Shown: in pieces, positions 1 to 12,407 of the stretch | How positions within the stretch are numbered: the stretch's first letter is position 1 | How the letters are laid out: each line of letters begins with the position of its first letter | Source of the DNA: a virus | Taxonomy: Duplodnaviria > Heunggongvirae > Uroviricota > Caudoviricetes | DNA: 12,407 nt | Virus record (IMG/VR): IMGVR_UViG_2541047881_000002 | Coordinates: 1 to 12,407 of that record | Direction: 5' to 3' (one strand) | Program-made: the position numbers and the translations under genes | Notes under the pieces: generated by a model | Databases searched by the model: none | Seen by the model: the letters and a program-made list of their open reading frames with translations, nothing else | Told to the model about the DNA's origin: nothing

Positions 1-3000
1 ATGCTGAAACGTCTGTTAAGTAAACTGACGGGAAACCGTCAGCAGATAGAACATCACCTAAAAAATCAGTACCAGGTTGAGGAAAACGGACTTAGCTTTC
101 CGCTATCGCTGGTTGATGATTCGCAGCTTTGGGCACTGGCATCCTGGCTAGAACAACTGGCTGAAGAAGACTATCTGATATCACTTACAGACCGGTGGTT
201 GTTGAGTTGGGACGCACTGTATCGCCTGCTGGAGGATGAGGAACATGCCAGCAGCCTGCCTCTTATCGGTGTACCTGACGTACTGCCTTTACGCGCAAGC
301 CTGAGTTCACGAGGAGCATTAAGCGATAGCGATTTTCGCGTCTGGATTGCTGAATGGGCTACGCTTCCAGCCCGCAAGCCGATCCGTTTCAGTCGTACCG
401 GTGCCATTTTAACCCATGAAAATCAGCAATACCTGTTATCGCGTGAAAACTGGGCACTCTTACAGGCAACAGAACAACTCAGTGCACAGAAAAATCAGAC
501 TCCTGGTGAAACCACTAACCAGTTGGGATGGGCCGCTATCCGCAAATGTGCGAAGCAAGCAGCCGCAAAATTTGATGATTATTTAGAAAAAACGCATGTC
601 GTCAAACCAACTTCATTGTCATTACGTCTGCGTAAAGCAACGGTTGCCGATACTGCTGTTATCGAAATTGAGCCCCATTTCGAGGACCAGCCTGCTAACT
701 GGCTAGGCAGTTTTGACAAAAACTCGCAGGTTCACGATAGCTACCGCATCCCTGGAGAGAATGGCGAACTCAGCCATGTCATTATCCCTCCCGAAGTGAA
801 AGAAGTCCTGAATTCAATACACTCGATTCCAGGCCGTCGAGTGGCCGGAAGCGAAGCGCTTTCCTTTGTTCGCAATCCTTATACCTTCCTGGGTGAAGAT
901 GCCGCCAGTGTTATTGCCCCTGAAGAACATGAACAGGCACTGTTTGATGCCAGGATTTTCTTTCATCATTTCAGGTTGATACCGCAACTGAATGCGGAAA
1001 ATAAGATCGCAGAAGTTACGCTGGTACTTGAGCCTGTTTCACCTGTTCCCCAGCCAGAAATCACTTTTGGGTTCTCAGCCCCCCGGGAGCTGGATAAATT
1101 CATACAGCAACTCGGTATTAGCGTCGCTGCACAGATGCCTGCCGGTTCATGGCAAGGTTACGAGCTGGAATTAAGTCAGTTCACTGAACAGCAGTGGCAC
1201 GATTGCCAGGCACTTCTAACTCGCTGGCAGCAAGAAATAGAAGGAAAAGAATTTAGCGATGTGCTGGATATTGCGAAGTATGGCGATCGCGTGATTGGCA
1301 TTGGTGAATTTGAAAAAATCTCCTCTCCCTGGCTGACCAAAGCGCAGAGTGAAAACTGGCTTCCAGATGACATCGATTTCTCCGCGTTTTCAGTCGAAAC
1401 ACTGTCTGGCTGGCAACCTGAAAACCTTCACCATTTCGATGAACTGCAGGAGAGAATTACTCAGGCAGAAGCTGTAGGTGAAACGCATATCACCGCACCA
1501 TGGAATGACAGCCAATTACCGTTGGATGCTGCTAAAACCTTCAGTAAGAACTGGGAAAAACAGCAAAGCACTGCAAATGAATCTCAAGGCAACGTTGCAG
1601 ATAAAACGGCCCGAGCCGTACTCAAAATTGAGCAGAATATTGAAGAAACGGCCTACATCAAACAGCGCCGCAATTCACTCCTCAATGCGCGTCATGCCGA
1701 GCCTGAAATTCCTCTGAGCCTTAAAGAGCATATCCGACTCAAAGACCATCAACGTGAAGGCGTAGCCTGGCTCCAGCAACTCTTCCTTCGTTCACCTGAG
1801 GAAACCGCAGGTTGCCTGCTGGCGGATGATATGGGGCTTGGGAAAACGCTGCAAATTCTGAGCTTCCTGGTATGGTTCATTGAAAAATTCCCGCAAGAAC
1901 CGCCAAGTCTCATTGTTGCTCCTGTCTCTCTTTTAGATAACTGGGAACGTGAACTGGACAATTTCTTCTATACCGCAGGAATACCGGTATTGAAATTGTA
2001 TGGCGAGACCATTAAAGCGGTGAAATATCCCAAACAGGCTATCCCTGCTCATCTGCAATCTCAGGGGATCAAAAACCTGCTTAAACCTGGCTGGCAGGGT
2101 GAGGCGAAAATCATCCTGACAACCTACGAAACGCTTCGCGACCAGGAGTTTTCTCTGGCACGCCAGCCGTGGTCCATTATGGTGTGCGACGAGGCACAAA
2201 AAATAAAAAACCCAGCTGCGTTAATCACACATGCGGCCAACGCGGTACAAGCCAGGTTTAAAGTGGCATGTACAGGAACACCTGTCGAAAACACACTTGT
2301 CGACCTGTGGAGCTTATTTGATTTTGCCCAGCCAGGATTGTTAGGGGCACTAAATGAATTTGGTAAACACTATGTTCGCCCCATCGAGAACGAAGATGGC
2401 CGCGATACGGAACGGTTGGAAAGCCTGCGAGCGCTGATAGAACCTCAGACTTTACGCCGAACCAAAGAAGAGGTTGCGCGTGATTTACCTCAGAAAATTG
2501 AAGTGGAAAGCTGCAAGCAATTGACGTTGTCTGGCGTGCAAAAACAGCTCTACCTTTCGTCCGTTGCAAATTGGCAACAACAGCAAGCACTGAGCGAAGG
2601 GATGCAGCAGGCCGGAACCGGTATGTTAGGTTTGTTACACCGACTGAAACTCATCTGTGCACACCCTGCAGTAGTTAATCCAGAACCACGTTTTCGTGAT
2701 AACTCACCCAAGCTTAACTGGCTGCTGAAAATACTCGCAGAACTAAAACACACCACGAAAGATAAGGTCATTATTTTTACGGAGCTTCGAGATTTACAGC
2801 GCGAACTTCAACATGCGATCCACCAAAAGTTTGGTTTCCGCCCTGTCATTATCAATGGTGATACCAGCACTAAAAGTCAAAGTCAAAACAGCCGCCAGCG
2901 CCTGATTGATGATTTTCAGGCTCAGCCTGGGTTTGGGGTGATTATTCTCTCTACGGTTGCCGTCGGATTCGGCGTTAACGTCCAGAAAGCCAATCATGTT

Positions 3001-3243
3001 ATTCATTTCACTCGCTGCTGGAACCCAGCCAAAGAAGATCAGGCAACAGACCGGGCGTACCGAATTGGGCAAACTAAAGATGTGTATGTCTATTACCCGA
3101 CGGTGAAGGACACTGAAATCACCACATTTGAAGAAACACTGGATGACCTTCTGCAGCGTCGACGTGCATTGGCCAGAGATATGCTCTGCGCTACTCCCGA
3201 TTTGAGTGGCGCGGATTTTGAGGCCATTTTGAAGGGGGCTTAA
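1..3243 (+). CDS. SNF2-family (Swi2/Snf2-type) helicase/ATPase, 1080 aa, with an uncharacterised ~560-aa N-terminal region
   Basis: Single uninterrupted ORF from ATG at 1 to TAA at 3241-3243. Translation shows SNF2 motifs: motif I LLADDMGLGKT (nt ~1819-1848), motif II MVCDEAQKIKN (DEAQ box), motif III TGTPVENTLVDLWSLFDF, and C-terminal motif VI QATDRAYRIGQ. Residues 1 to ~560 carry no motif I can recognise. Confidence 0.85.
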   Translation: MLKRLLSKLTGNRQQIEHHLKNQYQVEENGLSFPLSLVDDSQLWALASWLEQLAEEDYLISLTDRWLLSWDALYRLLEDEEHASSLPLIGVPDVLPLRASLSSRGALSDSDFRVWIAEWATLPARKPIRFSRTGAILTHENQQYLLSRENWALLQATEQLSAQKNQTPGETTNQLGWAAIRKCAKQAAAKFDDYLEKTHVVKPTSLSLRLRKATVADTAVIEIEPHFEDQPANWLGSFDKNSQVHDSYRIPGENGELSHVIIPPEVKEVLNSIHSIPGRRVAGSEALSFVRNPYTFLGEDAASVIAPEEHEQALFDARIFFHHFRLIPQLNAENKIAEVTLVLEPVSPVPQPEITFGFSAPRELDKFIQQLGISVAAQMPAGSWQGYELELSQFTEQQWHDCQALLTRWQQEIEGKEFSDVLDIAKYGDRVIGIGEFEKISSPWLTKAQSENWLPDDIDFSAFSVETLSGWQPENLHHFDELQERITQAEAVGETHITAPWNDSQLPLDAAKTFSKNWEKQQSTANESQGNVADKTARAVLKIEQNIEETAYIKQRRNSLLNARHAEPEIPLSLKEHIRLKDHQREGVAWLQQLFLRSPEETAGCLLADDMGLGKTLQILSFLVWFIEKFPQEPPSLIVAPVSLLDNWERELDNFFYTAGIPVLKLYGETIKAVKYPKQAIPAHLQSQGIKNLLKPGWQGEAKIILTTYETLRDQEFSLARQPWSIMVCDEAQKIKNPAALITHAANAVQARFKVACTGTPVENTLVDLWSLFDFAQPGLLGALNEFGKHYVRPIENEDGRDTERLESLRALIEPQTLRRTKEEVARDLPQKIEVESCKQLTLSGVQKQLYLSSVANWQQQQALSEGMQQAGTGMLGLLHRLKLICAHPAVVNPEPRFRDNSPKLNWLLKILAELKHTTKDKVIIFTELRDLQRELQHAIHQKFGFRPVIINGDTSTKSQSQNSRQRLIDDFQAQPGFGVIILSTVAVGFGVNVQKANHVIHFTRCWNPAKEDQATDRAYRIGQTKDVYVYYPTVKDTEITTFEETLDDLLQRRRALARDMLCATPDLSGADFEAILKGA

Positions 3244-3279
3244 CCGATACGAGTGGCAATACCACCAGCAGTCGAACCG

Positions 3280-3409
3280 ATTCATTTGAAACGACACGTA
3301 GCCGCGATGGATCTGTATCACCTACCGACAGCTTGGGAAAGTCCCGAATTACAAATGTTCAGGGGAATACCATAACCTGCCGGACTTATTCGTTTGGAAC
3401 GACGTGTTA
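3280..3409. repeat. Pair of imperfect 22-nt direct repeats (3280-3301 and 3388-3409, 16/22 identical, differences mostly transitions), each flanked by short inverted repeats
   Basis: ATTCATTTGAAACGACACGTAG versus ATTCGTTTGGAACGACGTGTTA. The second copy is enclosed by CGGACT (3381-3386) and AGTCCG (3416-3421); the first by GTCG and CGAC. Lies in the 520-bp non-coding gap between two convergent genes. Confidence 0.4.
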
Positions 3410-3764
3410 CGACTTAGTCCGAGGGAAACATGCCAGGTAAAAACCGAATATCCATCCTCAGCTTTAGCAAATACCTCCCCATACTCGCTACTTCATATTG
3501 AGAAGATATTGTGTTGCTCATATTGCTTTGAGCATGCTCTTCAGCGTTTACATGTGGATCGTACTACCCTGATGATCCGATGCGTTGTTTACTGCTTTTA
3601 ACCTCTATATACAAAACCCCCACTAAATATTTTTCTGAGACTAACGGTAAATCATTATCTATCATGTAGTTACGATAGAATTGCATGTATCTGGCACAAA
3701 ATAAGGTTTCATTACGTTCTATCTTGTTAAATATAAAGGGATCATTTCCTCCCAAAGTCACAAT

Positions 3765-4478
3765 CTACAGGAACGGTTTCAATAACATCGGATCAATGAT
3801 CCCCTCTGGAAAATCGTAAAGATGCTGACGCGCTGTCGTCTCCTTCAGTCCCGCTGCTTTAGCAAAATCGCTGACGGAGTAGCCTTCAGGCCACCAGCTC
3901 TGATAGTAAATATCAAAATACTGCCCCCACTCTGCGCTCATCGGGCGTCGTGATAGCTGTCGGGCAGCAGATTTCTGAGTCAGTTGATATTTCACAATAT
4001 ATTCACCAACGCTAAGACCATTCTCGACTTTTTCGCGCTGAAACTGGCGACGATGGTAAACCCAGAACAGCGCCCTAAGCGATGCGCCACCAGCTTTATG
4101 CAGCGCATTCCAGGCTCTGCGGTGCGGTATCCTGTAGCGTTGCGCGTATTCGGTTTGTGTAATGCCATGCAGAATCGCTTCACGACGATAATTTTGCTTG
4201 TGCCAGGCCCAGTCAATCTTCCAGCGGTCGCATCGCTCGCTGTAGTCCTGAGCTCTTTTCTGGCGGGCAACAGGCAACTTCAGAAAGTTTTCAAAGAGTG
4301 TATCCAGCGAGCACGCAACCGGATGGATATGCTGCGTTTGCAGACGTATCTCATTGGGCGTAAGTGGGCGATATTCGAGCCCCGTTAGACGTTCCAGCCG
4401 CCATTCATGATAGTTTTTTCGACGACGTCTATTCCCGGCATACTTCAAACGATACAGTGCCTGTTCAGCGTATGACAT
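3765..4478 (-). CDS. YagL/YfjJ-like island protein, 237 aa; C-terminal W/Y-rich domain paralogous to the C-terminus of the adjacent Rep-like protein
   Basis: ATG at 4476-4478 preceded by a strong SD (AAGGAG, 7-nt spacer); stop TAG at 3765-3767. C-terminus (SAEWGQYFDIYYQSWWPEGYSVSDFAKAAGLKETTARQHLYDFPEGI) aligns with the 315-aa protein (SPHWLRHFDRYYDNYWPCGVSVAQYCNWHDLNPSTARRYLCDYPPAV). A 14-bp overlap with the upstream gene suggests an operon. Family assignment is from recall, not a search. Confidence 0.65.
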   Translation of the reverse strand: MSYAEQALYRLKYAGNRRRRKNYHEWRLERLTGLEYRPLTPNEIRLQTQHIHPVACSLDTLFENFLKLPVARQKRAQDYSERCDRWKIDWAWHKQNYRREAILHGITQTEYAQRYRIPHRRAWNALHKAGGASLRALFWVYHRRQFQREKVENGLSVGEYIVKYQLTQKSAARQLSRRPMSAEWGQYFDIYYQSWWPEGYSVSDFAKAAGLKETTARQHLYDFPEGIIDPMLLKPFL

Positions 4479-5412
4479 ATTGAATCTCCTTTTGAAGCCA
4501 ACCCCTCAGGATGCCAGGTGAGATAACTGCTGGTGGATAATCGCAGAGATAACGCCGGGCTGTTGAAGGATTTAAATCGTGCCAATTACAGTACTGAGCG
4601 ACGCTGACTCCGCAGGGCCAGTAATTGTCGTAATAGCGATCGAAATGCCGTAGCCAGTGAGGAGATAGTTGAGGTTTTTCAGCTGCTTTTCCGCGCTGAT
4701 ACAGCTTCAGTAAACGCTGAATGCTGCGAATCTGGCTATTTGTTTCATAATCCAGAGAGTCAATCTCTGCGGGTTCATTATCACCGAGAAATAACGGGTC
4801 AAGCTTACCTGGCAGCGGACAGTAACGTTCGGCAGGTGGCTGGCATTGCTTGAGTTTGGCTGGAGTCCTGGGTTTAGGCTTTTGTTGCTTCAGTACTTTG
4901 TAGTGCTTGCGTCCGTACAACGGAATATGTTTTGCGATTCCGGTCTTAGTGGCGTATTTAGCGAAATAGCTCAACCTTAACAGAAGCTCCCCCAGGGTCT
5001 GCGAATCGCGCTTATGGACCATGTAGTATCCGTTTTTGGGAAACCAAACTTTCCCGTTAGTTGCCGAACTCCAGGTCTTCTCCACCAGCCCATTCAATAC
5101 CTTTGGTGTACGTATGTGGTTCCCGTCCACCATGAGCACACAGTGATAGTGCTGCGCTGTCGCTTTGTCATGCTCACGAACCCAGAATATATCGAAAAAA
5201 GACTTTGGATAACGAGCACGTAATACCTGGGCTAATTGCTGGCAGAAGTCCGAAATAACCTGATTGTCATCTGTATAGCTCTTGAGATGTAAATCATAGC
5301 GAACAGCCAGAAAACGCGAAGTCCGCAGATAGGTTTGATTCACCGTATCAAAAAGGGCTTCCATGATCCTGGAATCATACTCTCCCTCTGCATGAAGTAT
5401 CGGCCAGAACAC
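4465..5412 (-). CDS. YagK/YfjJ (inovirus Gp2-like) rolling-circle Rep-like protein with HUH motif, apparently 5'-truncated at the IS junction (possible pseudogene)
   Basis: The ORF has no ATG start: the first candidate is GTG at 5410-5412 with no SD, and the frame stays open for 32 more codons up to the IS end at 5509. Contains AQHYHCVLMVDG (HUH-like) and LSYFAKYATK (Y-x-x-K-Y, resembling the phiX174 gpA active-site motif YVAKYVNK as I recall it). Confidence 0.6.
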   Translation of the reverse strand: MFWPILHAEGEYDSRIMEALFDTVNQTYLRTSRFLAVRYDLHLKSYTDDNQVISDFCQQLAQVLRARYPKSFFDIFWVREHDKATAQHYHCVLMVDGNHIRTPKVLNGLVEKTWSSATNGKVWFPKNGYYMVHKRDSQTLGELLLRLSYFAKYATKTGIAKHIPLYGRKHYKVLKQQKPKPRTPAKLKQCQPPAERYCPLPGKLDPLFLGDNEPAEIDSLDYETNSQIRSIQRLLKLYQRGKAAEKPQLSPHWLRHFDRYYDNYWPCGVSVAQYCNWHDLNPSTARRYLCDYPPAVISPGILRGWLQKEIQYVIR

Positions 5413-5550
5413 TTCGTCATACAGAAAGTATCCTTGAGCATTAATCCACTGAGCTGCTTGCGAGGCCGGTATATTATTAATTACCGATGGTTTCTCGAAC
5501 TGATGATCTGAACCGCCCCGGGTTTCCTGGAGAGTGTTTTATCTGTGAAC

Positions 5551-6441
5551 TCAGGCTGCCAGATCATCGTTTCCGATGGAAGCATAATAAGCTTTTTCTG
5601 CTTCTGCCGGAGGAGTATGGCCCAGCCTTTCCAGCAATCGTCGATTGTTATACCAGTCCACCCACGTGAGTGTGGCCAGTTCCACTTCTGCACGGTTTTT
5701 CCAGCTCTTACGGTGTATTACCTCCGCTTTGTAAAGACCATTGATGCTCTCCGCCATCGCGTTGTCATACGAGTCGCCTGTACTTCCTGTTGATGCCAGT
5801 AATCCGGCTTCCTTAAGCCGCTGTGTGTAGGCCAGCGATACATACTGAGAACCTTTATCACTGTGATGGACCGTGCCGGACGGTCGACGGGCCCATAACG
5901 CCTGCTCCAGTGCATCCAGCACGAATGTCGTTTCCATGGACGATGAGACCCGCCACCCCACGATGTATCCGGCAAACACATCAATGATGAACGCCACATA
6001 GACGAAGCCCCGCCATGTGCTGACGTAAGTAAAATCAGCCACCCACAGCTGGTCAGGTCGTTCTGCCACGAACTGACGGTTTACGCGGTCGCCTGCGGCA
6101 ACGGCTTTCCGGCTGATGGTCGTACGGACCTTTTTACCCCGGAGAACACCGGCAAGTCCCATAACCGCCATGAGGCGCGCCACTGTACATCTGGCCACCC
6201 TGATTCCTTCCCGTAACAACTGACGCCAGACTTTACGCACACCGTACACCTGATGATTTTCATCGTATACGCGCTGTATCTCTCTCTTCAGCCAGTCATC
6301 GTGCTGCGCACGGGCACTGCGTTTATCCGGATGATGTCGCTGTTGCTGACAATGGTAATACGTTGACGGGGCAATATGCAGTTCGCTGCATACCGGTCCG
6401 ACCCCGTACTGCTCACGCAGCTTATCCAGCAGTGGCATCAT
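5551..6441 (-). CDS. IS3-family transposase OrfB (DDE catalytic core), 296 aa
   Basis: Translation carries the IS3-type DDE triad context (WVADFTYV ... HHSDKGSQY ... [11 protein letters not shown]). Begins ATGATG, overlapping the orfA stop in the -1 frame. Confidence 0.9.
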
Positions 6442-6449
6442 TTTTTCCA
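6438..6449 (-). other. Candidate programmed -1 ribosomal frameshift site at the orfA/orfB junction (CTGGAAAAAATGATG on the minus strand)
   Basis: A run of six A (6441-6446) immediately precedes the orfA stop TGA (6438-6440), with orfB in the -1 frame. IS3-family elements make OrfAB by -1 frameshifting; a canonical A-AAA-AAG heptamer is not present here, so the exact site is uncertain. Confidence 0.4.
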
Positions 6450-6764
6450 GAGGCGGTCGAACTCCGCCTTCGCAAAATAAGCGGAAGCCTGGCGAAGGAT
6501 ATCGTTACTGCGGCGCAGTTCACGATTTTCACGTTCCAGCTCTTTCAGACGCTGACGTTCAGCGCTGGTGAGCCCACCATCACCGCCCCCGGTATCCCGC
6601 TCATGCTGGCGAACCCAGACACGCAGAGTCTCCGGCGTACAGCCAATCTTTGGGGCAATGGAACAAATTGCCGCCCACTGTGAGTCATATTCATCCTGAC
6701 TTTCCAGAACCATACGGACTGCCCGTTGACGGACTTCGGGGGAAAAACGAGTATTTTTAGTCAT
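6438..6764 (-). CDS. IS3-family transposase OrfA (HTH and leucine-zipper-like region), 108 aa
   Basis: ATG at 6762-6764 (minus strand), 54 bp inside the left IR; ends ...RLWKK with TGA overlapping the orfB ATG. Coiled-coil-like [17 protein letters not shown] segment is typical of IS3 OrfA. Confidence 0.9.
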
Positions 6765-6847
6765 CCTGTTTACCTCTTTCTCAGGAAGTTTAGTCTCCAG
6801 GATTCCCGGGGCGGTTCACCTTGCTTCCGGCTGGTACCGTCCTTTTT

Positions 6848-6936
6848 ACAAAACAGAGAAGAGCATCACCGGACGACGGGCTCATAACCCAATCCATCCG
6901 GGCGGCAGTCACCGCAGGTGTTCTTCTCTGTTTTGT
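6848..6936. repeat. Perfect 15-bp inverted repeat (ACAAAACAGAGAAGA at 6848-6862, TCTTCTCTGTTTTGT at 6922-6936) enclosing a 59-bp GC-rich spacer
   Basis: Read directly; arms extend imperfectly (CATCACCGG / CACCTGCGG). Spacer contains GGGCTCATAACCC, an anticodon-stem-loop-like hairpin. Lies between the IS left end (6818) and the yfdP-like start (6985). Confidence 0.7.
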
Positions 6937-6984
6937 GGAGAAACTAACCGACCTTGCAGGGTCGATATGATGAGGAGCAGCAAA

Positions 6985-7347
6985 ATGGCTAGCGAACGCA
7001 GTACTGATGTGCAGGCATTTATCGGGGAGCTGGACGGCGGCGTATTTGAAACCAAAATCGGCGCAGTTCTCAGTGAAGTCGCTTCCGGTGTGATGAACAC
7101 GAAAACCAAAGGTAAGGTCTCGCTCAACCTGGAAATCGAACCGTTTGATGAGAACCGAGTGAAAATCAAACACAAACTCTCATATGTTCGCCCGACTAAC
7201 CGCGGGAAAATTTCCGAAGAAGACACCACCGAAACGCCGATGTATGTCAATCGCGGTGGTCGCCTGACTATTCTGCAGGAAGACCAGGGACAGTTACTGA
7301 CTCTTGCCGGTGAACCTGACGGAAAACTCCGCGCAGCAGGTCGTTAA
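6985..7347 (+). CDS. yfdP: YfdP-like prophage protein, 120 aa
   Basis: ATG at 6985 preceded by GAGGAG (6973-6978, 6-nt spacer); the track ORF start at 6967 lacks an SD. The 120-aa length matches K-12 CPS-53 YfdP as I recall it, and it is first in a five-gene series matching the yfdP-T lengths. Confidence 0.7.
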   Translation: MASERSTDVQAFIGELDGGVFETKIGAVLSEVASGVMNTKTKGKVSLNLEIEPFDENRVKIKHKLSYVRPTNRGKISEEDTTETPMYVNRGGRLTILQEDQGQLLTLAGEPDGKLRAAGR

Positions 7348-7412
7348 TATCGTTTTTAATTAACTGATTATTTATCTCATCACTGAATATCTTTATATAG
7401 TGAGGACTTATT

Positions 7413-8237
7413 ATGTCTCAGAACTTAGACGCAACCGCAATTAATCAAATCCATGCCCTTATTTCTGCTCAGGGTGTTAATGAAATTATCAGTAAGATTG
7501 GTGCCGATGCTGTGGCATTGCCTGAGAATTTCCGCATTCATGATCTGGAAAAATTTAATTTAAATCGCTTCCGTTTCCGTGGTGCGCTTTCCACTGCCAG
7601 CATCGATGACTTTACCCGTTATTCTAAAGATCTTGCAGATGAAGGCACCCGCTGCTTTATCGATGCTGATAATATGCGTGCCGTCAGTGTGCTTAACCTG
7701 GGTACTATTGATGAACCAGGTCACGCAGATAACACCGCCACACTCAAACTGAAAAAGACAGCACCGTTCTCTGCTCTGTTGTCTGTTAACGGCGAGCGTA
7801 ACTCCCAGAAGTCACTGGCAGAATGGATTGAAGACTGGGCCGACTATCTTGTGGGCTTTGATGCTAATGGTGACGCTATTCAGGCAACAAAAACGGCTGC
7901 GGCTGTCCGTAAAATCACGATTGAAGCAAACCAGACCGCTGATTTTGAAGATAATGACTTCAGCGGCAAACGCTCCCTGATGGAGTCTGTCGAAGCGAAG
8001 ACCAAAGACATTATGCCAGTGGCATTTGAATTTAAATGCGTTCCGTTTGAAGGTCTGAAAGAACGTCCGTTTAAATTACGCCTCAGTATTATCACTGGCG
8101 ATCGTCCTGTACTGGTTCTACGCATTATTCAGCTGGAGGCGGTGCAGGAAGAAATGGCTAACGAATTTCGTGATCTGCTTGTTGAGAAATTCAAGGACAG
8201 CAAAGTAGAAACCTTTATTGGTACTTTCACCGCCTGA
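7413..8237 (+). CDS. yfdQ: YfdQ-like prophage protein (DUF2303-type), 274 aa
   Basis: ATG at 7413 with SD GAGGA (7402-7406); stop TGA at 8235-8237. Length and position in the series match CPS-53 YfdQ (274 aa) from recall. Confidence 0.8.
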
Positions 8238-8249
8238 TTTCATTACTGC

Positions 8250-8271
8250 AAATGCCCCTGCGGGGGCATTT
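8250..8271 (+). terminator. GC-rich perfect hairpin (AAATGCCCC-tgcg-GGGGCATTT) 13 nt after the yfdQ-like stop; candidate partial intrinsic terminator or RNA-stability element
   Basis: 9-bp perfect stem with a 4-nt loop, read directly. Only a 3-T tail follows, so termination is probably partial. Confidence 0.4.
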
Positions 8272-8364
8272 ATGGAAACGTAATTTACTCAATAATCGCC
8301 GGATGGTGAGGGATTCTTTTTACCAGAATTCAGCGCGGTGCAGCGCATATACGTGGAGAACAAA

Positions 8365-8901
8365 ATGTCATTTATTAAAACTTTTTCCGGGAAGCATTTT
8401 TATTATGACAGGATAAATAAAGACGACATCGATATTAACGATATCGCGGTTTCCCTTTCAAATATCTGTCGCTTTGCCGGTCATCTTTCGCACTTCTACA
8501 GCGTCGCCCAACATGCGGTTCTTTGCAGCCAGCTGGTGCCGCAGGAATTTGCTTTTGAAGCGTTAATGCATGATGCAACAGAAGCGTATTGCCAGGACAT
8601 TCCCGCACCACTGAAACGCCTTCTTCCTGACTATAAACAAATGGAAGAAAAAATAGACGCCGTAATCCGTGAGAAATACGGGTTACCCCCAGTTATGAGT
8701 ACGCCCGTGAAATATGCCGATCTCATCATGCTGGCAACCGAACGCCGCGATCTCGGGCTTGATGATGGCTCTTTCTGGCCTGTACTGGAAGGTATCCCGG
8801 CAACAGAGATGTTCAACGTGATTCCACTGGCTCCGGGCCATGCCTACGGGATGTTTATGGAACGCTTTAACGAGTTATCGGAGTTACGCAAATGCGCATG
8901 A
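8365..8901 (+). CDS. yfdR: HD-domain metal-dependent phosphohydrolase, YfdR-like, 178 aa
   Basis: ATG at 8365 with SD GGAGAA 8 nt upstream; the track start at 8338 is in-frame but has no SD. HD-domain signature: H...HD...D pattern in YSVAQHAVLC ... LMHDATEAY. Stop TGA at 8899-8901 overlaps the next start. Confidence 0.8.
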   Translation: MSFIKTFSGKHFYYDRINKDDIDINDIAVSLSNICRFAGHLSHFYSVAQHAVLCSQLVPQEFAFEALMHDATEAYCQDIPAPLKRLLPDYKQMEEKIDAVIREKYGLPPVMSTPVKYADLIMLATERRDLGLDDGSFWPVLEGIPATEMFNVIPLAPGHAYGMFMERFNELSELRKCA

Positions 8902-9254
8902 ATGTTTTCGAAATGGAAGGGTTTCTTCGTGGGAGATGTGTACCGCGAGATCTGAAAGTAAATGAAACAGATGCTGAATACCTAGTGCGTAAATTCGATG
9001 CGCTTGAAGCTAAATGTGCAGCACAGGAAAACAAAGTAATACCAGTGTCAACTGAACTGCCACCAGCAAATGAAAGTGTTTTGTTATTCGATGCTAACGG
9101 AGAAGGCTGGCTAATTGGCTGGCGTTCTCTCTGGTACACCTGGGGACAAAAAGAAACCGGAGAATGGCAGTGGACATTTCAGGTCGGGGACCTTGAAAAC
9201 GTCAATATCACTCACTGGGCAGTAATGCCAAAAGCACCGGAGGCTGGAGCATAA
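8892..9254 (+). CDS. yfdS: YfdS-like prophage protein, 120 aa, Trp-rich C-terminus
   Basis: ATG at 8892 (alternative ATG at 8898 overlapping the upstream TGA as ATGA); length matches YfdS (120 aa) from recall. Confidence 0.7.
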   Translation: MRMNVFEMEGFLRGRCVPRDLKVNETDAEYLVRKFDALEAKCAAQENKVIPVSTELPPANESVLLFDANGEGWLIGWRSLWYTWGQKETGEWQWTFQVGDLENVNITHWAVMPKAPEAGA

Positions 9255-9559
9255 TGACCACTTTTACCGACAAAGAACTGATTAAAGAAATTAAAGAGCG
9301 TATCAGCAGCCTTGACGTGCGAGACGATATTGAGCGCCGTGCTTATGAAATCGCACTCCTATCTCTGGAAGTAGAACCAGATGAACGCGAAGCTTATGAA
9401 TTATTCATGGAAAAGCGTTTCGGTGACTTAGTAGATCGTCGGAGAGCAAAAAACGGCGATAACGAATACATGGCATGGGATATGACTCTCGGTTGGATCG
9501 TCTGGCAGCAACGAGCTGGTATCCATTTTTCAACAATGTCACAGCAAGAGGTGAAATAA
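9254..9559 (+). CDS. yfdT: YfdT-like prophage protein, 101 aa
   Basis: ATG at 9254 overlaps the upstream TAA (TAATG); its own stop TAA at 9557-9559 overlaps the next ATG (TAATG). Length matches YfdT (101 aa) from recall. Confidence 0.7.
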   Translation: MTTFTDKELIKEIKERISSLDVRDDIERRAYEIALLSLEVEPDEREAYELFMEKRFGDLVDRRRAKNGDNEYMAWDMTLGWIVWQQRAGIHFSTMSQQEVK

Positions 9560-9909
9560 TGGAGCCATACAGCCTCACACTCGATGAGGCCTGTCATTTT
9601 CTCAAGATATCCAGACCGACTGCCATTAACTGGATACGCACAGGGCGTCTTCAGGCAACACGCAAAGATCCCACTAAGAATAAATCTCCTTACCTCACAA
9701 CACGACAAGCCTGCATTGCGGCTCTTCAGTCTCCGCTGCATACTGTCCAGGTGAGCGCGGGTGATGGCATAACAGAGGAAAGAAAATGTCACTCTTCCGC
9801 AGAGGTGAAATATGGTACGCCAGTTTCACATTGCCGAACGGTAAAAGATTTAAACAGTCTCTTGGAACAAAGGACAAAAGGCAGGCGACAGAACTCCATG
9901 ACAAGCTAA
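9559..9909 (+). CDS. xis: Excisionase / AlpA-type HTH DNA-binding protein (Xis-like); 3' extent uncertain
   Basis: N-terminal [35 protein letters not shown] matches the excisionase-family HTH pattern (LTLDEA..FL.+SR.T+..WI+.G+L); SD AGAGGTGA upstream. The ORF runs to 9909, overlapping the integrase start by 124 nt in another frame. Confidence 0.65.
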
Positions 9910-10949
9910 AGGCTGAAGCATGGCGGGTCAGCAAACTTGGTGAAATACCTGATATAACGTTCGAGGAAGCGTGTGTCAGGTGGCTTGAAGAGAAAGCACA
10001 TAAAAAATCACTGGACGATGACAAAAGCCGGATCGGATTCTGGCTTCAACATTTCGCAGGAATGCAACTAAGAGACATTACTGAATCAAAAATTTATTCA
10101 GCAATGCAGAAAATGACGAACCGGCGTCATGAGGAAAACTGGAAACTCAGGGCAGAAGCATGCAGAAAAAAAGGGAAACCTGTTCCAGAATACACGCCAA
10201 AACCAGCGTCCGTTGCAACGAAGGCTACGCATCTTTCATTTATAAAGGCCCTACTAAGAGCCGCAGAGCGTGAATGGAAAATGCTGGATAAGGCACCAAT
10301 TATTAAAGTGCCCCAACCAAAGAATAAACGGATCCGCTGGCTGGAGCCCCATGAAGCACAAAGGCTGATTGATGAATGTCCGGAGCCATTAAAGTCTGTT
10401 GTTGAATTTGCACTGGCAACAGGCCTAAGACGCTCGAACATCATCAACCTTGAATGGCAACAAATAGATATGCAGCGCCGGGTGGCATGGATAAACCCGG
10501 AAGAGAGTAAATCAAACCGCGCAATTGGCGTTGCGCTGAATGATACTGCATGTCGCGTATTGAAAAAACAAATCGGGAATCATCACCGTTGGGTATTTGT
10601 GTACAAGGAAAGCTGTACCAAACCAGACGGAACGAAAGCGCCAACAGTCAGGAAGATGCGGTATGACGCAAACACAGCCTGGAAAGCGGCGCTGAGACGG
10701 GCTGGTATTGATGATTTCAGATTTCACGACTTGAGACACACCTGGGCAAGTTGGCTGGTTCAAGCCGGAGTCCCGTTGTCAGTGTTACAGGAAATGGGAG
10801 GCTGGGAGTCTATCGAAATGGTTCGTCGATATGCTCACCTTGCACCTAATCACCTTACCGAACACGCACGGCAAATAGACTCGATCCTGAACCCATCGGT
10901 CCCAAATTTGTCCCAGTCAAAAAATAAGGAAGGTACTAATGATGTGTAA
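9786..10949 (+). CDS. int: Phage-type tyrosine site-specific integrase (lambdoid / Rac IntR-like), 387 aa
   Basis: ATG at 9786 with SD GAGGA (7-nt spacer). Catalytic signature present: [10 protein letters not shown] (Arg), HDLRHTWAS (H-x-x-R), VRRYAHL (Tyr). Stop TAA at 10947-10949, 14 bp from the tRNA 3' end. Confidence 0.93.
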
Positions 10950-10990
10950 CTTATTGATTTAAATGGTGCCGATAATAGGAGTCGAACCTA
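10950..10990. other. Putative attL core of the integrated element, overlapping the 3' end of thrW
   Basis: The integrase stop is 14 bp from the tRNA 3' end and convergent with it, the usual geometry for tRNA-targeting tyrosine integrases. Exact core boundaries cannot be set without the matching att copy. Confidence 0.4.
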
Positions 10991-11039
10991 CGACCTTCGC
11001 ATTACGAATGCGCTGCTCTACCAACTGAGCTATATCGGC
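10964..11039 (-). tRNA. thrW: tRNA-Thr, anticodon CGU, 76 nt with encoded CCA
   Basis: Reverse complement of 10964-11039 reads GCCGATATAGCTCAGTTGGTAGAGCAGCGCATTCGTAATGCGAAGGTCGTAGGTTCGACTCCTATTATCGGCACCA: 7-bp acceptor stem, D-arm GCTC/GAGC, anticodon loop TTCGTAA (CGT), T-loop TTCGACT, 3' CCA. Position next to proA matches the E. coli proA-thrW arrangement. Confidence 0.93.
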
Positions 11040-11079
11040 CCTGAAAGGACATGTTCACGAACGTGAATCACGGTGGACA

Positions 11080-11108
11080 AGGTTAAAACTAACCGGGCGA
11101 TGCGTCAA
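11080..11108 (-). promoter_or_regulatory. Candidate sigma70 promoter for thrW (-35 TTGACG at 11103-11108, 17-bp spacer, -10 TAACCT at 11080-11085, minus strand)
   Basis: Hexamers read on the minus strand upstream of the tRNA 5' end (11039). The -10 is weak, so the call is tentative. Confidence 0.3.
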
Positions 11109-11153
11109 TGGCCTTGTGAATCAAATGGCTACTTTTGCATCACCCGATTTTAT

Positions 11154-12407
11154 TTACGCACGAATGGTGTAATCACCAATGCCGATCCACTTGTAAGTGG
11201 TCAGTGCTTCCAGCCCCATTGGGCCACGCGCGTGGAGTTTTTGTGTGCTTACCGCCACTTCCGCACCCAGTCCAAACTGGCCGCCGTCGGTAAAACGCGT
11301 AGAGGCGTTAACGTAAACAGCGGAAGAATCCACTTCGTTAACAAAACGCTGGGCGTTGCGCATATCGCGGGTCAGGATCGCATCGGAGTGTTGTGTGCCG
11401 TGTTCACGAATATGGGCGATGGCATCGTCAAGATCGCTGACGATTTTGACGTTCAAATCTAATGACAGAAACTCATCGTCATACTCTTCCGCTTTAACCG
11501 CCACCACCTTCGCGGGGCCTGTCTGCAACTGCGCCAGCGCAGCTGCATCTGCGTGTAATGTCACGCCGCTTTCCGCCATTTGTTTGCTTAATGCGGGCAG
11601 GAAGCTATCTGCTATGTTTTTATTTACCAGCAACGTTTCAACCGTATTACATGTGCTCGGACGCTGGGTTTTCGCGTTGACGATTACTTTCAGGGCTTCA
11701 GCGATCTCTGCACTTTCATCAACGTAAATATGGCATACGCCTATACCACCAGTGATCACCGGGATCGTCGACTGTTCACGGCACAGTTTATGCAAACCAG
11801 CGCCACCACGCGGGATCAGCATGTCGATGTATTTATCCATACGCAGCATTTCACTGACCAGCGCACGGTCAGGATTATCAATCGCCTGCACGGCACCCGC
11901 CGGTAAGCCACAGGATTTCAGGGCGTCCTGAATCACCGCCACCGTTGCCGCGTTAGTGCGACAGGTTTCTTTGCCACCACGCAGGATCACCGCATTACCG
12001 GTTTTCAGGCACAGCGAAGCGACATCAACCGTCACGTTCGGGCGCGCTTCATAAATCACGCCAATAACCCCCAGCGGTACGCGACGACGCTCAAGACGCA
12101 GGCCGCTGTCCAGTACGCCGCCATCGATTACCTGCCCCACCGGATCGGCGAGGTTACACACCTGGCGTACATCGTCGGCAATGCCTTTCAGCCGTGCGGG
12201 CGTCAGTGCCAGACGGTCAAGCATCGCTTCGCTAAGGCCATTGGCTCGCGCGTCAGCAACATCCTGGGCGTTAGCGTTGAGGATGATTTCGCTTTGTGCT
12301 TCCAGTTCATCGGCGATTTTTTCCAGCACGCGATTTTTTTCGCGGCTGGAGAGTTGCGCTAATTTATACGAGGCTTGCTTCGCGGCAATGCCCATTTGTT
12401 CCAGCAT
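11154..12407 (-). CDS. proA: Gamma-glutamyl phosphate reductase (glutamate-5-semialdehyde dehydrogenase), complete 417 aa
   Basis: ORF from ATG at 12405-12407 to TAA at 11154-11156; translation [30 protein letters not shown]... matches E. coli ProA as I recall it, with the expected thrW gene immediately downstream. Confidence 0.97.

Follow-up and report, generated by a model that had tools for sequence, protein, structure and literature searches.

How a gene comes to stop, with no start codon, exactly at the end of an insertion sequence (IS), and whether it could still be expressed, are the questions raised by a 12,407-nt stretch of Caudoviricetes DNA (IMG/VR record IMGVR_UViG_2541047881_000002, positions 1 to 12,407), referred to here as the window. 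The gene encodes a Rep-like protein of the YagK/YfjJ family, and the IS is an IS629-type element. All coordinates are those of the window, and the layout was obtained from the open reading frame (ORF) listing, a tRNA scan and comparison with annotated complete Escherichia coli genomes. Over 11,364 nt the window matches a draft-assembly scaffold (KE701683.1, from GCA_000460355.1) at 100 % identity. Very probably, two IS events in succession shaped the locus, which belonged to a tandem array of mobile elements at thrW: IS629 inserted, and a deletion anchored at that IS followed, leaving a 5'-truncated pseudogene. The features on which this depends are as follows.

4465-5508, minus strand: 5'-truncated YagK/YfjJ-family (HUH Rep-like) gene, codons 9-355 and the stop codon
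5410-5508, minus strand: orphaned codons 9-40 and the GTG (V41 of the intact protein); includes the VINNI motif (V17-I21) and G34
5362-5364, minus strand: ATG of M57, used by gene callers as the start of a 299-aa product
5506-5508, no strand: ATC, the sole remaining copy of the 3-bp target-site duplication from the first IS629 insertion
5509-6818, minus strand: IS629-type element of the IS3 family, 1310 bp, apparently intact, with the right inverted repeat (IRR) at 5509 and the left (IRL) at 6818
6819-6984, plus strand: new junction, where the IRL of IS629 directly meets internal sequence of a prophage gene, with no target-site duplication

Translation of 4465-5508 on the minus strand gives 347-348 sense codons followed by a stop. 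A sequence-only reading of the window had pointed to 32 stop-free codons without an ATG between GTG 5410-5412 and the end of the IS. This is correct, and the same codons (5413-5508, DHQFEKPSVINNIPASQAAQWINAQGYFLYDE) contain no GTG or TTG either. The GTG itself, as had been stated, has no Shine-Dalgarno (SD) pairing (+0.6 kcal/mol). The frame had been said to run up to the IS end at 5509; that boundary is exact, but the frame stays open for 10 codons more inside the IS (NTLQETRGGS) before TAA 5539-5541, and no start is gained. Beyond the IS (past 6818), all three minus-strand frames had been described as closed or lacking an ATG. This applies to the frame in phase with the gene, which reaches a stop after 9 codons with no ATG, but not to one out-of-phase frame, which is open for at least 49 codons and contains ATGs. 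The overstatement has no effect on the conclusion.

The sequence from 4400 to 5508 is present at >=99 % identity in 49 of 5,426 complete E. coli genomes, and the IS junction is absent from 48 of these. Two IS-free genomes, those of strains 602354 and E24377A, were inspected, and in both the Prokaryotic Genome Annotation Pipeline (PGAP) records an intact gene of 1068 nt for a 355-aa 'YagK/YfjJ domain-containing protein'. The start codon, ATG, is located 24 nt past the position equivalent to 5508, and the protein starts MNKLEKYR-DHQFEKPSVINN. Exactly these 24 nt, or 8 codons (MNKLEKYR) including the ATG, are missing from the window. The 32 orphan codons are codons 9-40 of the conserved 355-aa gene and not a chance feature. 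The gene is thus truncated at the IS, as predicted, having lost its initiation codon and conserved coding sequence that intact orthologues retain. The loss is much smaller than a reader of the window might have assumed, amounting to 8 codons and the promoter and not to a large N-terminal domain.

Database search yielded homologues of 343-371 aa from genera that include Klebsiella, Pantoea, Mixta and Enterobacter; those from Citrobacter and some others are more distant and reach ~450 aa. The alignment with full-length homologues that the sequence-only reading had proposed as a check shows, for 17 sequences (to 38 % identity), that the starts co-align with M1 and that none is at the GTG; V17, N19, I21, G34, W43, E49 and M57 are invariant. 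When all 41 sequences are aligned, N19, I21, G34 and W43 are still invariant and M57 is nearly so. The N-terminal 56 residues are kept in homologues as far as 37-38 % identity. As this conservation (VINNI, G34, W43) extends so far and 5413-5508 holds no start, we take the real start to be M1, and not GTG 5410-5412 or ATG 5362-5364.

Were the natural start the GTG or the ATG of M57, the IS would have interrupted nothing but the 5' leader, leaving the coding sequence complete. Gene callers do predict a 299-aa product from ATG 5362-5364 in 22 contigs, and SD pairing at the M1 start is weak (-1.2 kcal/mol). However, we consider such a start extremely improbable. The 343-371-aa homologues, aligned from M1, keep V17, N19, I21, G34 and W43, and undamaged alleles are called at 355 aa (cluster P0001, 186 members). 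Among ten listed places with the 299-aa call, four bear the IS, one is a contig that starts at the gene, and five are IS-free. Four of these five have either a codon-5 GAA to TAA change or a 1-nt deletion upstream, and the fifth has a run of Ns. PGAP also gives the 299-aa protein, with no pseudogene flag, for an IS-bearing allele in a complete genome (AP027818.1, described below). Because the IS-free contigs that can be read upstream carry a lesion or Ns before M57, the 299-aa call is best seen as a by-product of damage and not as a sign of a shorter natural protein. The AGGA before the ATG of M57 is only 2 nt away and its underlying codons are not conserved in homologues, and this ATG is probably not a natural start. 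Both internal starts were rejected on the conserved N-terminus, the co-aligned starts of homologues and the upstream lesions.

The boundaries of the IS, 5509 and 6818, are exact. Its ends, TGAACCGCCCCGGGTTTCCTGGAGA and TGAACCGCCCCGGGAATCCTGGAGA, begin and finish with 5'-TG...CA-3' and form imperfect terminal inverted repeats, TGAACCGCCCCGGG(TT/AA)TCCTGGAGA. Over positions 1-1310 the element is 98.0-98.1 % identical to elements annotated as 'IS3 family IS629' in Shiga toxin (Stx) phages. Two overlapping genes, orfA (6438-6764) and orfB (5551-6441), are both on the minus strand, and their transcription is directed toward the truncated gene. Identical copies of the IS match Pfam HTH_Tnp_1 and rve, and PGAP annotates one of them as an IS3 family transposase with a programmed frameshift, together with a pseudoknot. 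By these sequence features the element is identified as IS629 (synonym IS1203v), a member of the IS3 family. Many E. coli genomes carry several copies of IS629, with a median of 3 places per genome.

The truncated gene and orfB of the IS share one reading frame, separated only by TGA-VHR-TAA and 10 sense codons. The TGA (5551-5553) is the orfB stop and precedes TAA 5539-5541 in that frame, and these two stops rule out a transposase-Rep fusion. The shared frame is a coincidence with no apparent consequence.

The left junction, between the gene remnant and the IS, was found in exactly one complete E. coli genome, that of strain 2017.15.02CC (AP027818.1). The IS there is identical to the window copy over 1310/1310 nt and has the same left junction and orientation. 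It is a simple insertion, reading ...ctgatgATC, the IS, then ATCtctatatttttctaatttattCAT, with a 3-bp duplication of ATC. On the far side of the IS this strain retains the 24 nt lost from the window and the upstream region, then the terminator of alpA, alpA itself and a gene for a 300-aa protein. The target site is hence known in three states, with a single ATC in the intact allele (L001), ATC on both sides of the IS in AP027818.1, and ATC on the left but CCT on the right in the window, where the IS is followed by ccttgcttccgg... instead of ATCtct... A simple insertion in the window is ruled out by the missing duplication and the foreign right flank, and the proposal that the IS marks a deletion breakpoint was sound. 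As AP027818.1 holds the same IS as a simple insertion, and the right flank in the window lacks the duplication, the IS came first and the deletion second.

The right flank in the window is co-linear and co-oriented with an internal site of a lambdoid prophage next to thrW. In three closed genomes (AP027818.1, AP022245.1 and CP013025.1), it is preceded by ...cagcttgtac, with no IS. In AP027818.1 the order of elements continues beyond the 300-aa gene with a partial thrW, a P22-like prophage, a further partial thrW and the lambdoid prophage, which has a restriction-modification module and whose integrase (int) end adjoins thrW-proA. The window sequence is obtained when the right end of the IS in AP027818.1 (L005:13460) is joined, without a change of orientation, to L007:32275, which is equivalent to an 84.6-kb deletion. 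Both partial thrW attachment (att) copies fall within the stretch that would be deleted, and none other remains left of thrW in the window. The thrW-proA sequence is identical in AP027818.1 and the window and ~2 % different in other strains, so the two share a backbone at this locus.

The history that we favour has two steps. In the first, which is directly represented by AP027818.1, an IS629-type element inserted after codon 9 of the 355-aa gene, duplicating ATC, with its transposase genes facing the gene. The target gene belongs to a Zorya-carrying island with the order hyp285 - alpA - rep-like - orf237 - zorDCBA. In the second step a deletion anchored at the IRL end of the same IS removed the second ATC copy and the 24 nt of coding sequence still left beyond the IS, start codon included. 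The same deletion took the promoter region, the alpA terminator, alpA, hyp285, the att copy of the island and adjacent prophage DNA up to a point in the early-left region of the lambdoid prophage by thrW, about 85 kb in all if the ancestor resembled 2017.15.02CC. That a rearrangement took place is evident from the junctions, and we infer its mechanism. An adjacent deletion by IS629 that leaves the IS intact, through intramolecular transposition or an IEE-type event, is favoured. It fits a product in which the left junction is still that of the simple insertion, the IS is complete, the right side has lost the duplication, and the distal flank is co-linear and co-oriented, lies on the same replicon and is uninterrupted in relatives. 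For IS629, large deletions of adjacent DNA in which the IS itself stays whole are documented (PMC9330008, section 5.2.4), and rapid formation of adjacent deletions of various lengths has been described for IS3 (PMC8860574, introduction).

Homologous recombination between two direct IS629 copies, one in the Rep-like gene and one in the prophage gene immediately after ...gtacCCT, would also have deleted the intervening DNA. The ATC and CCT flanks are exactly those predicted, one half of each duplication around a hybrid IS. IS629 also occurs in more than one copy in many E. coli genomes, and in other strains two-piece matches place IS629-like copies no more than a few hundred nt from this prophage region. 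However, no IS629 was found at the prophage site, at either junction, in the 5,426 complete E. coli genomes, the representative genomes or the Joint Genome Institute (JGI) metagenomes searched, and in AP027818.1, a closely related closed genome, nothing interrupts the site. The IS in the window matches the single AP027818.1 copy base for base and bears no mark of a hybrid, but recombination between identical copies would leave no such mark. On balance, as the evidence against a second copy is all negative, recombination is the unlikely route, though one to be taken seriously.

A short-read assembler could also have joined the junctions of two IS629 copies, in which case the deletion would be unreal and the gene still interrupted by the IS. 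In favour of this, the window matches a draft scaffold at 100 % identity, the repeat formed by IS629 is 1.3 kb long and multi-copy, and no other instance of the right junction was found. Such an artefact would likewise presuppose a further copy of IS629 at that site in the prophage, and the searches described above found none. Furthermore, other draft assemblies (L012 and L013) break at this IS rather than bridge it, and the scaffold has no Ns across the IS. We therefore rate this explanation as very improbable.

Several observations weigh against the IS-anchored deletion or limit how far it can be taken. A one-ended adjacent deletion and recombination with a second IS629 copy since lost give the same end product. 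The window is a draft scaffold, and its right junction is in none of the independent closed genomes searched. In addition, the prophage in the window differs from that in AP027818.1, in that yfdP-yfdQ are present and there are 19 single nucleotide polymorphisms (SNPs); the ancestor hence resembled AP027818.1 without matching it exactly, and the figure of ~85 kb for the deletion is only an estimate. With respect to the loss of function that we infer, the whole Pfam domain (residues 71-197), with its putative HUH and Tyr motifs, lies 3' of M57, and a weak SD is no peculiarity of the remnant, as the native start has one too.

Strain WP8-S18-CRE-02 was considered as an ancestor-like genome because its prophage end is 100 % identical to that in the window, but it was rejected as its array has no Zorya island. 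The yfdP-yfdQ segment (about 1.3 kb; 6951-8253) is in the window and not in the AP027818.1 prophage, and the SNPs are clustered at 8260-8325. Despite the identical thrW-proA, this difference indicates mosaicism between the two lambdoid prophages.

Copies of an IS629-like element a few hundred nt from the site of the right junction, detected as two-piece matches, occur in several E. coli genomes of 5.3-5.5 Mb. Examples (for window 6669-6968) are NZ_CP024479.1 at 1828655-1829291 and cattle strains with accessions of the form NZ_CP0286xx. This prophage region may be a recurrent target of IS629.

Whether the remnant could be expressed depends first on a promoter. Intact loci have a strong intrinsic terminator after alpA, about 80 nt 5' of the Rep-like ATG, and the Rep-like gene therefore had its own promoter, in the 80-110 nt that are now deleted. 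A consensus scan of 5200-7000 on both strands found no sigma-70-like site at or near the new junction. The best candidate by eye, TCGAGA-16-TAATAT, is native gene sequence and has 8/12 matches, which is below threshold. The suggestion that the gene might be expressed from an outward promoter, IS-derived or hybrid, hence finds no support. Read-through from the transposase genes could possibly transcribe the remnant, but it supplies no start codon. With the ATG, 8 codons and the promoter region missing, the remnant is most likely a promoterless, start-less and recent 5'-truncated pseudogene, as judged by comparison with intact loci, and the sequence-only reading was right to suspect one. The downstream gene orf237, sharing the lost promoter, is probably silenced or reduced by polarity.

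The alternative is a gene that is not dead, transcribed by read-through or from a weak hybrid promoter and translated from M57 (299 aa) or V41 (315 aa), which would keep the PF11726/HUH domain. Several features fit this. The transposase genes face the gene with no minus-strand terminator between, Pfam domain 71-197 is wholly 3' of the nearly invariant M57, and PGAP and other callers annotate the 299-aa ORF. The remaining 347 codons carry no stops or frameshifts, and other alleles damaged at the 5' end (a codon-5 nonsense mutation and two frameshifts) keep the 299-aa ORF. However, only 1 nt in 5.5 kb separates this region from intact alleles, and because the event is so recent the lack of further decay is uninformative. 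The other lesions were found by look-up with the exact 299-aa sequence, a sample that is biased toward such alleles. Residues 17-49, of which such products would lack all or some, rank with the most conserved of the family and include a confidently modelled beta-hairpin, the first of the predicted fold; by the model, a product from V41 or M57 would lose the VINNI motif and part or all of the hairpin. The GTG has no SD, the AGGA of M57 is poorly spaced and unconserved, and no promoter-like site was found. A live gene is accordingly a very improbable outcome, and a start-less pseudogene remains our preferred reading.

Damage at the 5' end is seen in IS-free alleles also. The codon-5 GAA to TAA change is in at least 2 contigs (L008, ~5896-5900, and L016), and 1-nt deletions are at codon ~26 (L011) and just before M57 (L014). 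Including IS629 at codon 9, four 5' lesions (one nonsense mutation and two frameshifts being the others) were seen, each sparing the 299-aa ORF from M57, in a sample subject to the look-up bias noted above and in which some lesions may be sequencing errors. It is conceivable, though we doubt it strongly, that the Rep-like gene is repeatedly knocked out at its extreme 5' end in separate lineages, through selection against full-length Rep or retention of a functional M57 isoform. If true, selection against full-length Rep would amount to domestication or immobilization of a defence island. An M57 isoform would loosely resemble, by analogy, the nested in-frame products of filamentous-phage gene II.

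The remaining features of the window are the defence cargo and orf237, to the left of the truncated gene, and the prophage remnant and its attachment site, to the right of the IS.

1-3243, plus strand: zorD of a type I Zorya system, intact (PGAP annotation of identical loci; PADLOC ZorD models)
3765-4478, minus strand: orf237, a 237-aa gene downstream of the Rep-like gene, which it overlaps by 14 nt
6985-10949, plus strand: integrase-proximal remnant of the lambdoid thrW prophage (prophage DNA from 6819)
6985-7347, plus strand: yfdP
7413-8237, plus strand: yfdQ
8365-8901, plus strand: yfdR
8892-9254, plus strand: gene for a phage protein
9254-9559, plus strand: yfdT
9475-9909, plus strand: helix-turn-helix (HTH)/xis-like gene
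9831-10949, plus strand: tyrosine integrase gene
10964-11039, minus strand: thrW, tRNA-Thr(CGT), found with ARAGORN; attachment site of the tandem array
11154-12407, minus strand: proA

Gene coordinates in the prophage remnant were transferred from L003, and the remnant is 100 % identical to NZ_AP022245.1 and its annotation. The prophage gene at 6819-6984 is annotated 'hypothetical protein, frameshifted' in intact prophages. The thrW gene at 10964-11039 is the only thrW-derived att copy that a search for att copies found in the window.

The zorD gene is cargo of the same island as the Rep-like gene, and the Zorya genes are untouched by the events described. The PADLOC model named DpdE (PDLC02854) matches the full length of ZorD from the window at 2485 bits, against 1574 bits for the best ZorD model; this is probably a labelling quirk of the PADLOC library. 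Although its promoter is shared, orf237 has its own strong SD (AAGGAG, -8.7 kcal/mol). It has no Pfam, NCBIfam or PADLOC match.

Three mobile elements, the lambdoid prophage, the P22-like prophage and the Zorya island, are in tandem at thrW in AP027818.1. The thrW-related sites there are at L005 15016-15078, L006 29348-29411 and L007 35116-35191, and the partial copies are 63-64 nt. The thrW-proximal end of the Zorya island has no annotated integrase in the loci inspected (L001 and L002), and the island might depend on a co-resident thrW integrase. If the ancestor had an array like that of AP027818.1, the remnant of the Zorya island and the int end of the prophage are now probably fused, non-excisable and fixed in place.

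The Rep-like label comes from profile matches. The intact protein passes Pfam PF11726 (YagK_YfjJ_C) over residues 71-197 (E 4e-16, 59.8 bits against a gathering cutoff of 25.8), a domain kept in the remnant, and barely passes PF23343 (REP_ORF2-G2P) over the same residues (29.9 bits against a cutoff of 27.8). H128, Y129, H130, Y189 and K192 are invariant in 41 homologues; H128-Y129-H130 may be read as the HUH motif and Y189/K192 as a putative catalytic-Tyr motif. An AlphaFold2 model of the intact protein has a mean predicted local distance difference test (pLDDT) score of 78.5, with residues 30-215 mostly >85. In it, strands 34-38 and 41-45 form a confident beta-hairpin and 54-70 a helix. A sequence search of the PDB with the family profile returned spurious matches only, and nothing was found for the protein in NCBIfam or PADLOC. 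A literature search on YagK/YfjJ found no functional study and no family member with an experimentally established function. We regard 'Rep-like' as a reasonable but unproven label, assigned from sequence.

The first 40 positions of phrog_1711 ('terminase') weakly match residues 298-330 in the C-terminal tail of the Rep-like protein (window ~4540-4640; E 5e-4) and residues 139-176 of orf237 (E 3e-6). This suggests that the tail and the adjacent orf237 share a small HTH-like motif, presumptively DNA-binding.

Decay of a gene by IS629 insertion and IS-anchored deletion is a known and ordinary kind of event, and the value of this case is mostly practical, as no new biological question is opened. 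For annotation, the public 299-aa 'YagK/YfjJ domain-containing protein' is a start-less fragment of the 355-aa gene and should carry a pseudogene flag. For genome structure, a single IS629 copy can collapse a thrW tandem array (Zorya island and P22-like and lambdoid prophages) into one fused remnant. Such a remnant, non-excisable but retaining its defence cargo, represents a textbook route to the chromosomal fixing of a defence island.

The Rep-like protein and the IS can both be compared with known systems. The K-12 proteins YagK (from CP4-6) and YfjJ (from CP4-57) belong to PF11726, or the 'inovirus Gp2 family', and are about 200 aa long. The intact allele resembles them in passing the PF11726 threshold and in adjoining an alpA-type gene in a tRNA-associated island. 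It differs in its length of 355 aa, an extra conserved N-terminus (the VINNI motif) and a C-terminal HTH-like tail. Beyond the family, the closest systems are the HUH rolling-circle Reps, among them the SIRV1 ORF119 Rep, the nuclease domains of parvovirus NS1 and adeno-associated virus (AAV) Rep, pMV158 RepB and gpII of filamentous phages. The element in the window is like IS629 in having orfA and orfB with a programmed frameshift and, in the sister strain, a 3-bp duplication, and unlike the IS629 copies of O157 Stx phages in being about 2 % diverged. In the rearrangement, as in the adjacent deletions described for IS629 (PMC9330008), an original junction is retained, the IS is whole and a large piece of neighbouring DNA is lost on one side; the named parallel is the IEE-promoted type 'd' deletion of IS629, which leaves the IS intact.

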